DNA of 64,000 nt, from NCBI RefSeq assembly GCF_030384885.1, contig NZ_CP128613.1; one strand, given 5' to 3'. Positions 41,846 through 44,107 of this stretch are shown one piece after another; the stretch's first letter is position 1, and every line of letters starts with the position of its first letter. The translations under genes and the position numbers were made by a program. Below the pieces are notes generated by a model. The model was not told the DNA's origin, did no database searches, and worked only from the letters and a program-made list of their open reading frames with translations. This DNA is from Escherichia coli (GTDB taxonomy: Bacteria > Pseudomonadota > Gammaproteobacteria > Enterobacterales > Enterobacteriaceae).

Positions 41846-42361
41846 TTATTCCGTGACTTCCAGCGTGGTGAAGGCAAACTTCTCGCCATCAAACAGCCCC
41901 TGACTGGTTAGTTTCAGCGCGGGGATCACTGGCAGGGAAAGAAACGCCATCTGAATAAACGGCTCATCCGGTAACGGACCACATTCACGGGCGGCAGCTT
42001 TCAATGCGTCAATTTGCTCCGCCAGCGATTGTGCCGTGTCGGTGCTCATCAGCCCGGCAATGGGCAATGGCAGATGGCTCTGTACCTGACCGTTACGTAC
42101 TACGCATAGTCCGCCGCCATCCTGAATCACCTGATTGACCGCCAGCGCCATCTCTTCGGCACTACGACCGATCACCACAATATTATGGCTGTCATGGCTG
42201 ACCGTCGCAGCCAGCGCGCCTTCATTCAGGCCAAAACCGCCGAGCAAACCACAGGCTGGAGCCAGTCTTTTCCCGTAACGCTCAAGTACGGCAATAAAGC
42301 ACACATCATCGCGATCAAAACCATTTTCGCTGTAGACGCTGGAGCGGGAGTGCGTAATCAA
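41846..42361 (-). pseudogene. ade: 5'-truncated adenine deaminase gene, C-terminal ~170-180 codons only
   Basis: translation ...[29 protein letters not shown]...LEVTE matches the Ade C-terminus; the N-terminal ~400 codons are absent; frame open only back to about 42397. Confidence 0.85.
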
Positions 42362-44107
42362 TTCGTTATGGATAACCTGGTTGAAGGGGGCGAGTCCTTA
42401 CTGTCTGGTGATAACGTAATAGTGGAAGGAGCCGTACGTTCAGGAGGATGGTCTGAAACCGCCGGTGTTTATACTGCTACATGGTCGGCGCAAATGGCGG
42501 GAGACTCTCACCACGCGACGTTGACTTTGCCTGAGTGGGGCAGCAGTAAACAATCAGAGAGTTATTCCATCCACAGTGGTGCTCCGGTGCAAACAAATTC
42601 AGCCATCAGGACAGATAAAACGACATATATCGCCGGGGAGTCATTAACTGTCACAGTAACGTTGCGGGATGAGTTTGGTAACCCGGCTTTAGGGCTGACA
42701 TCAGGAGTTATCGAATCATATATCGATAATTTTACGGTGGGCGGCGCAGTCCCCGATTCGATGCAATGGGTCGAACAGAATAATGGTGAATATACCATGA
42801 TCTGGACAGCATGGTTTGCCGAGAAAAATTTGGTTGCCAGTCTGAAATTAAAAACATGGGCAACGGAGATTGATTCCGCGCTATACGGGATACAACCAGG
42901 TGCAGCAGCAAAAACTCAGTCCACGATTATCACGGACAAAACGGTATATATCGCTGGGGAGAGCATAACGGTGACTGTTGTACTTAGTGATGCTCAGGGT
43001 AACTTTATTACTGATGGTGTCGCTCAGCTTAATGAGGAAAACGTAAAAGTCAGGAATGCAGATCCTATCCAGGGTAATAATTGGATATACAACGGCAATG
43101 GGCAATATCAAAGACAGTATATGGCGCATTTCGCGGAAGTGAATTTGAATGCACAACTGAAGATGGTTGGTTGGAGCGATGCCAATTATTCAAATAATTA
43201 TACTATTAAACCGGGTGAAGCGAGTCCGCATGGTTCACAGCTTCGTATAAGAGATGATGTTGTGGTTGTTGGGGCGGATTTACCTGTCAGTGTTTTATTA
43301 GCTGATGATTTTGGTAACCCGTTGGATAACGGTCTGGATTTGCTGGATAATGCAGTGTACTTACAAAATGTGGAGAAGAAAGAAGGGGCTAAATGGATAT
43401 ATTTGGGTGATGGCATATATGAGCGTACCTATATGGCCTACAAAGAAGGAGAGAACTTAAATTCATTTCTGCAGATTAACGGTTGGCGTGTAAACGGGCA
43501 ACCTTCCTATACCATCCTTCCTTTTGTAGTAGTCGATTCTCTGAGTGTGAATGGTGCAATATTCAGGGCGATAGATGGTTTTCCTGAAACAGGATTTGAT
43601 GGGGCTAAATTCACCTTAGTATTAACCCATAATATGAAGAATACAGATTATGATTGGACGGCAGGCATCTATGGTATTAATGTTAACAATAATGGAGAAG
43701 TCACAATAAGTCTGCCCCTAAATAGTGAAATCACTATTACCGGGAAACCAAAAGATGGTAAAGGGAATAATGTTGTATTCAAATTCAAGATGAAAAAATG
43801 GTTTACTAGTTTAGGTGCTGCCAGTAATAACACTTGGGATATTATAAATGCATCATGCAATAGCTATGGACAAGTGGCGTCATCTTTAGAATTAGCGCAG
43901 CGACCAAGTAGTGGTGTAGTTCCACGAAAAGTAGGTACGTTGTGGGGAGAATATGGTAATTTGAAAGCTTATGGCAGTACATTTAGCAGTACGGATTACT
44001 GGACAAGTACTGTACTTATAGGGGTTCACGAGAAATTCAATCCTGAAACTGGTATATCAACACCAGGATCAGGAAAGTCTTCTGGTTTGTGTGTGAGATA
44101 TTTTTAA
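42362..44107 (+). pseudogene. eaeX: 5'-truncated invasin/intimin-family gene (EaeX/Air-like): bacterial Ig-like repeats plus C-terminal lectin-like domain, no N-terminal signal or beta-barrel
   Basis: three repeats of the type TDKT(T/V)YIAGES(L/I)TVTV.L.D..GN; C-terminal Cys pair (INASCNSYG ... GLCVRYF); the ORF-track N-terminus (42185-42361) is antisense to ade. Confidence 0.7.

Follow-up and report, generated by a model that had tools for sequence, protein, structure and literature searches.

Two genes of Escherichia coli, the adenine deaminase gene adeD (ade/yicP) and iatC, which encodes an inverse autotransporter adhesin of the EaeX/Air type, are reduced to abutting 3′ remnants in a 64,000-nucleotide stretch of contig NZ_CP128613.1 (assembly GCF_030384885.1), which is referred to here as the window. 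The exact junction between the two remnants is the tetranucleotide TAAC at window 42373-42376. We consider it highly probable that this arrangement goes back to one recent event in an E. coli clone carrying the eip/selC-B island, namely an illegitimate deletion that was mediated by microhomology and took out 13,593 bp. The feature is an ordinary, recent, and lineage-restricted deletion scar, and it is not surprising; its value lies mainly in annotation and typing.

Junction and deleted interval

The region of window 41840-44110 (a 2.3-kb query) and a 200-bp query were compared by megablast with 5,426 complete RefSeq genomes of E. coli. A single genome among them, that of E. coli 2013C-4282 (NZ_CP027579.1), matches both halves of the region at 100%, and in this genome the two halves lie 13.6 kb apart. 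Over 64 kb, the window differs from this sister strain by 6 single-nucleotide polymorphisms (SNPs), one 15-bp tandem-repeat indel, and one clean gap of 13,593 bp, which corresponds to a divergence of approximately 1 SNP per 10 kb, and the two sequences are collinear on both sides of the junction. In the BLAST alignment, window 35981-42376 equals positions 1-6411 of the 2013C-4282 locus, and window 42373-64000 equals locus positions 20001-41628. These two segments overlap by 4 bp, and the missing interval is locus 6412-20004.

A three-way alignment of the window with the two parental sites shows that TAAC is present at locus 6408-6411 and again at locus 20001-20004, whereas a single copy has been kept in the window. 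The sequence that flanks TAAC is unrelated between the two parental sites, and no remnant of an insertion sequence (IS), target-site duplication, or filler DNA was found at the junction in this alignment. Furthermore, no IS element or recombinase is annotated in locus 5881-21735 of 2013C-4282, which covers the deleted interval, and no secondary BLAST matches occur between the two breakpoint regions, where long homology is absent. The probability of a microhomology of at least 4 bp by chance is approximately 0.016. Repeat-mediated recombination, or an ambiguous breakpoint inside the repeats of iatC, was also considered and was ruled out because the stub maps uniquely and without secondary matches.

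Short-homology illegitimate deletion in E. coli is generally ascribed to slippage during replication or to alternative end-joining. The present junction has the same anatomy as other microhomology-mediated deletions, that is, a seamless join, a direct repeat of 4 bp shared by the parental breakpoints, one copy of which is left, and breakpoints without an IS element, an integrase site, long homology, or any other mobile-element signature; nothing about it is unusual. This anatomy would fit a RecA-independent mechanism, either slippage or alternative end-joining. A single step of this kind between the parental TAAC copies would have left one of them in place and removed the iatC promoter together with codons 1-2648, which specify the signal peptide, the LysM domain, the β-barrel translocator, and most of the Big repeats. 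The outcome would be two non-functional stubs and a fortuitous chimeric open reading frame (ORF).

The gene content of the deletion is evident from the annotation of 2013C-4282, in which the intact order is uhpT (plus), adeD (minus), adeQ (plus), yicN (plus), a helix-turn-helix (HTH) antitoxin gene (minus), a RelE/ParE-type toxin gene (minus), nepI (plus), iatC (plus), eilA (minus), and the eip genes. The intact iatC gene, on the plus strand, has 9,678 nt and encodes 3,225 aa. The first breakpoint falls within adeD, after codon 412, and the second within iatC, at codon 2648/2649. Apart from the 5′ parts of both genes (adeD codons 1-412 and iatC codons 1-2648), the deletion removed five whole genes (adeQ, yicN, the HTH antitoxin gene, the toxin gene, and nepI), the divergent promoter region of adeD and adeQ, and the stretch between nepI and iatC, where the iatC promoter would be expected, so that every local promoter has gone. 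In addition to the products of the two truncated genes, the strain is predicted to lack the adenine permease AdeQ, YicN, the toxin-antitoxin pair, and the purine ribonucleoside efflux pump NepI.

A preliminary description of the window had reported two truncated frames that meet within 42340-42400, near 42362, and had attributed them to one deletion as the simplest explanation. Both frames are real and do meet within this interval, although alignment to 2013C-4282 moves the exact point to 42373-42376; position 42361 is not the junction and just marks where the ade frame has its first mechanical TTG start. The breakpoint mapping that it had proposed, by alignment to a genome with full-length ade and iatC, places TAAC at both sites of NZ_CP027579.1, and the collinear flanks with their single gap agree with one deletion. 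According to the same description, ade and the adhesin gene were originally adjacent, divergent neighbors that shared a promoter region. This view has to be abandoned: in 2013C-4282 the genes from adeQ to nepI lie between them, the divergent partner of ade is adeQ, and iatC is located 4.4 kb further on, where it is co-directional with nepI.

There is no SNP in either stub, and both are 100% identical to the intact alleles of 2013C-4282. Therefore, neither stub has decayed since the event, and the event is recent and occurred within one clone.

The two remnants and the chimeric reading frame

The adeD remnant occupies window 41846-42376 on the minus strand and comprises codons V413-E588 and the stop codon, which correspond to positions 413-588 of the 588 positions of the NCBIfam adenine deaminase model NF007457. 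The C-terminus ending in LEVTE, which had already been noted on this strand, is thus that of Ade. The stub scores 350 bits against this model, compared with a curated cutoff of 768 bits and with 1260 bits for the intact AdeD of the sister strain, in which amidohydrolase-type matches are found at residues ~30-370. A full-length AdeD as defined by NF007457 and TIGR01178 includes the N-terminal amidohydrolase catalytic domain, and the stub falls short of it: residues 1-412, or 70% of the protein, are missing, the catalytic domain among them. The position of the stub is orthologous, being downstream of and convergent with uhpT, and its sequence is 100% identical to adeD of NZ_CP027579.1. The ade frame meets a stop 8 codons past the junction and has no start other than the mechanical TTG; the resulting 171-aa protein was not on record in an exact-protein look-up. 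The stub is a gene fragment and is predicted not to yield a functional adenine deaminase, and an ORF of 152-171 aa called as Adenine_deam_C at this locus should be regarded as a dead stub.

In K-12, ade is a cryptic gene that H-NS keeps silent and that IS insertion switches on, to the extent that this work is cited in PMC2753651 (Petersen et al., 2002). The gene is the same in the present strain, but it has been destroyed rather than silenced, and the neighboring permease gene adeQ has been lost as well. Because ade is normally silent in K-12, its loss was plausibly cheap.

The 531 bp at the 3′ end of ade (window 41846-42376) are also a rare, divergent allele, which is found at 100% only in 2013C-4282 and at 90-95% identity in 5,118 of 5,408 complete genomes. 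The adjacent segment with the 5′ part of ade, adeQ, and yicN has 95-99% identity in 5,411 genomes. The ade 3′ segment next to uhpT has the appearance of a patch brought in by recombination or of a hypervariable stretch.

The iatC remnant occupies window 42374-44107 on the plus strand and comprises codons N2649-F3225 followed by a stop codon at 44105-44107, that is, the last 577 of 3,225 residues, so that 82% of IatC is missing. The stub matches nt 7944-9678 of the 9,678-nt gene of 2013C-4282, annotated as iatC by PGAP, at 100% identity, and it is ~88% identical to genes that are annotated as iatC or EaeX/Air in other strains. It encodes approximately four immunoglobulin (Ig)-like domains, the invasin D4 domain, and a lectin-like D5 cap. 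Pfam searches identified Invasin_D4 (E 1.8e-12) and weak Invasin_D3 repeats, and domains D4-D5 of Yersinia invasin (PDB 1CWV, residues 295-481, E 2e-21) could be aligned with the final ~190 aa. Both the Big/invasin Ig-like repeats and the C-terminal C-type lectin-like domain of an adhesin passenger are therefore retained, as the preliminary description had recognized.

The translocator, by contrast with the passenger end, has been lost. Full-length IatC matches NF040978, an N-terminal IatC model of 1065 positions, over residues 1-1065 with 3,021 bits, whereas the stub matches positions 896-1050 by repeat similarity only and scores 168 bits against a cutoff of 2400. The full-length protein also matches β-barrel models of intimin, SinH, and YchO at residues ~110-530, none of which is left in the stub. 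The signal peptide, the LysM domain, and the inverse autotransporter β-barrel translocator that characterize a type Ve protein are all absent from it. The genomic context is nevertheless that of IatC or EaeX (Air): the stub is convergent with eilA in the eip/selC-B island, although nepI on the left-hand side has been deleted. The right-hand context is intact and collinear with 2013C-4282 (eilA, the eip genes, the chaperone gene, yicS, nlpA, yicL, setC, and tRNA-Sec).

IatC of E. coli SMS-3-5 is displayed on the cell surface and promotes biofilm formation when overexpressed (PMC6714894), and EaeX/Air of enteroaggregative E. coli (EAEC) 042 contributes to adherence and biofilm formation under the control of EilA (PMC7058095). 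Compared with these two type Ve proteins, the stub keeps the lectin-like cap (invasin D4-D5) along with Ig-like domains and lacks the signal peptide, the LysM domain, the β-barrel, and ~82% of the passenger. Because the N-terminal translocator parts were lost, the surface display and biofilm activity of full-length IatC cannot apply to the stub.

The junction also created a new reading frame. The iatC frame remains open upstream of the junction, through antisense ade, as far as a stop at 42107, and it contains fortuitous in-frame starts at 42185 (ATG), 42194 (ATG), 42350 (GTG), and 42368 (ATG). The chimeric ORF at window 42350-44107 (plus strand) begins at the GTG, encodes 585 aa, of which the first 8 codons are antisense ade, and is preceded by GGAG 5 nt upstream; translation from ATG 42194 or ATG 42185 would yield 637 aa or 640 aa. 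Because of these starts in antisense ade, gene callers emit a protein of 585 aa or 637 aa. Exactly these two chimeric products are on record in a collection of 15 billion proteins, and the versions of 640, 579, and 537 aa were not on record in the exact-protein look-up.

By inspection, no hydrophobic signal sequence is present at the N-terminus encoded by the chimeric ORF, and a model search identified neither a LysM domain nor a β-barrel in the ORF. Without these three elements, its product cannot serve as an adhesin on the cell surface through type Ve secretion. A simple promoter scan around the junction found no promoter-like site above shuffle expectation between the uhpT terminator and the chimeric ORF. 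The terminator scan identified a GC-rich hairpin with a T-run at window 41818-41846, between the convergent uhpT and ade, which resembles an intrinsic terminator (7 GC pairs, a 5-nt loop, and a T8 tail) and would limit read-through from uhpT into the chimeric ORF. We infer that the ORF gives a pseudogene product at best, and that the product, if it is made, would stay cytoplasmic. A protein of 585 aa or 637 aa called at this locus as hypothetical or as an Ig-like domain protein is best annotated as a chimeric pseudogene product and not as an adhesin.

The preliminary description had stated that both genes lack their 5′ halves, starts, and promoters. The native starts and promoters are indeed gone; the extent of the loss was understated, with 70% of Ade and 82% of IatC missing, and the junction supplies fortuitous starts. 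The accompanying statement that the strain lacks full-length adenine deaminase and the adhesin of the island is supported as far as this locus goes, since the 3′ stubs are predicted to yield neither a functional adenine deaminase nor the adhesin. A restored reading frame upstream, which would have contradicted that description, was sought and is not there: antisense ade lies upstream of the iatC stub, and the ade frame stops 8 codons past the junction.

Occurrence of the junction and alternative explanations

No record that spans the junction was found in the 5,426 complete RefSeq E. coli genomes with either the 2.3-kb or the 200-bp query. In the wider public data, 11 contigs were read, including 9 with the 585-aa product and 2 with the 637-aa product. 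Carriers of the 585-aa product include GCA_036346665.1 (contig JAJLMA010000017.1, 150 kb) and the Logan assemblies of SRR28813876 and SRR35948513; carriers of the 637-aa product include a contig from SRR34938331. The junction 46-mer GCGTAATCAATTCGTTATGGATAACCTGGTTGAAGGGGGCGAGTCC is present exactly in GCA_036346665.1, SRR28813876, and SRR35948513, where its flanks match the window at 99.98-100% identity across 9-14 kb. At least four independent public samples carry the identical junction, down to the base, and the 46-mer is a ready-made clonal marker. The 5′ end of ade, adeQ, and yicN are present at a coverage of at least 80% in 5,384 of the 5,426 complete genomes, with less than 80% in 33 and no match in 9. 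Because the deleted backbone is present in 5,384 genomes, the deleted state is derived and rare. The 5′ end of iatC is present in 751-755 of the 5,426 genomes (~14%). In typing, strains with the deletion allele ought to count as negative for air/eaeX/iatC, adeD, adeQ, yicN, nepI, and the toxin-antitoxin pair despite intact eilA and eip translocator genes.

The genomes with low coverage or no match indicate that other, independent lesions of the ade 5′/adeQ/yicN backbone exist. One of them is NZ_CP187211.1 (E. coli 20AR0734), in which nothing but the yicN end of the ade 5′/adeQ/yicN query (6%) has a match, at record positions 29241-29429.

An assembly artefact, in which ade was wrongly joined to the repetitive iatC, would explain why no complete RefSeq genome carries the junction (0 of 5,426), and long genes with Ig-like repeats such as iatC are known to cause misassembly (PMC6714894). 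The preliminary description had named misassembly as a possible objection. However, the identical 46-mer and its flanks recur in the separately sequenced and assembled GCA_036346665.1, SRR28813876, and SRR35948513, the chimeric product occurs in SRR34938331, the stub maps uniquely to iatC without secondary repeat matches, and a 4-bp overlap is far below the overlap length of any assembler. With the same junction in at least four independent samples, we regard misassembly as excluded for practical purposes, and the probability that we would still assign to it is almost negligible. A multi-step origin, through successive deletions or through an adjacent deletion that an IS mediated before it was itself lost, could mimic one event, since the end state alone is compatible with several steps. 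Independent lesions are also known nearby in other genomes, including the split of iatC into 2733 + 585 aa, the inserted ORFs, and the 33 genomes with coverage below 80% and 9 genomes without a match mentioned above. Against several steps, the junction carries neither an IS remnant nor a target-site duplication or filler, the sister strain has no IS in the interval, and a divergence of ~1 SNP per 10 kb leaves little time for several events; we consider such an origin very unlikely.

A further alternative is that the chimeric ORF is a functional new Ig/lectin-like protein of 585 aa, cytoplasmic or released, or that the deletion itself was selected for getting rid of the adhesin along with the genes for purine salvage and efflux. 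The in-frame GTG at 42350 with its GGAG, the reports of the ORF by gene callers, and the persistence of the allele in several isolates would fit this proposal. It is opposed by the lack of a promoter-like site upstream and by the strong uhpT terminator 500 bp upstream of the ORF, and type Ve surface display is impossible without a signal peptide and a β-barrel; selection cannot be tested, since no substitution has accumulated after the event. We find this alternative exceedingly improbable. Only slightly more credence, and still very little, is given to the broader proposal that the deletion is adaptive and clone-defining through the loss of the adhesin, adeD, adeQ, and nepI, or that the 585-aa ORF is expressed as a soluble lectin/Ig protein by way of residual EilA or read-through.

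The preferred reading, a single microhomology-mediated deletion that left two dead stubs, has points of its own against it. A single step is the parsimonious reading of the sequence, short of proof. The analysis covers 64 kb; BLAST detected no copy of the deleted segment elsewhere within this window, and the segment may have been relocated elsewhere in the genome. The proposal that the chimeric ORF is not expressed draws on two things, the uhpT terminator and the outcome of a simple promoter scan. Finally, with the junction in 0 of the 5,426 complete genomes, its spread is small.

The eip/selC-B island and the flanking sequence

The window starts exactly at the GTG start codon of dnaA (positions 1-3) and runs through gyrB, the dgo operon, ibpAB, ilvBN, uhpABCT, the eip island, and tRNA-Sec and beyond. 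A start at this codon indicates an assembly that was rotated to dnaA and is presumably complete, although it is not one of the 5,426 complete RefSeq genomes that were searched. The left flank of the junction is an intact uhpT (40408-41799, plus strand), an ORF of 463 aa that is collinear with the annotated uhpT of NZ_CP027579.1. The right flank is an intact eilA (44159-45856, minus strand), which encodes a HilA-family regulator of 565 aa and has no SNP compared with 2013C-4282. The rest of the eip/selC-B island (46059-51142, minus strand) has 2 SNPs compared with 2013C-4282, and all its ORFs are open. According to these ORFs and the annotation of the sister strain, it contains a needle-tip gene of the IpaD/SipD type (46059-47408), a hypothetical gene (47452-48603), a translocon gene of the YopB/SseC type (48616-50397), and a chaperone gene of the SycD/LcrH type (50645-51142), all on the minus strand.

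The island is located between nepI and yicS, near selC. It corresponds to the eip/selC-B locus known from EAEC 042, and the erosion of E. coli type III secretion system 2 (ETT2) and eip is well documented, as far as these studies are summarized in PMC7058095 (Ren et al., 2004; Sheikh et al., 2006). The island and gene set are the same here (an adhesin of the eaeX/air type, eilA, the eip translocator homologues, and the eicA chaperone), and the loss or inactivation of parts of the system is, according to that summary, the rule across E. coli. The present case differs in that one 13.6-kb deletion reaches the core backbone genes nepI, yicN, adeQ, and adeD, whereas the regulator and translocator genes are intact. 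In E. coli, the ETT2/eip system and giant repeat adhesins are well documented to erode; this case is one more example, and it raises no new question.

Other lesions of iatC were encountered in the course of the analysis. A 585-aa protein (WP_282452017.1) was first taken for the same allele on 135 contigs and was then rejected, because its N-terminus is native iatC (MTLKDAHGNLVEGG) and it derives from another lesion, which splits iatC into ORFs of 2733 aa and 585 aa. This split is present in OZ038830.1 and CP041520.1 (locus 1791-11758 in each), and its 585-aa product occurs in 165 collection blocks. In CATVNX010000007.1 (locus 5930-11758), minus-strand ORFs of 852 aa and 101 aa are inserted inside iatC. 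Other E. coli lineages appear, from these sequences, to inactivate iatC independently and in different ways.

The GC content of the region is a mosaic (window 42374-51142; 2013C-4282 locus 12058-28770), with 54.8% in iatC and 37% in the block from eilA through the eip genes to the chaperone gene. This contrast suggests that the adhesin gene and the type III secretion-associated genes differ in origin. Beside selC, a rhuM pseudogene fragment is annotated in the sister genome, which corresponds to window ~55384-55545, close to tRNA-Sec (55624-55718). The fragment is probably the remnant of a former element integrated at selC (selC-A type).

Two hypothetical genes lie between ilvN and uhpA (window 33674-34960 and 35150-36688), and neither ORF had matches in PADLOC or NCBIfam. 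The two genes are adjacent in K-12 as well. The second ORF contains, at window 36505-36560, the 15-bp tandem repeat TATAAAAAATACA[C/A]T, which encodes repeats of the YKKY type, with one copy fewer than in 2013C-4282; this difference amounts to 5 in-frame codons in the hypothetical protein.
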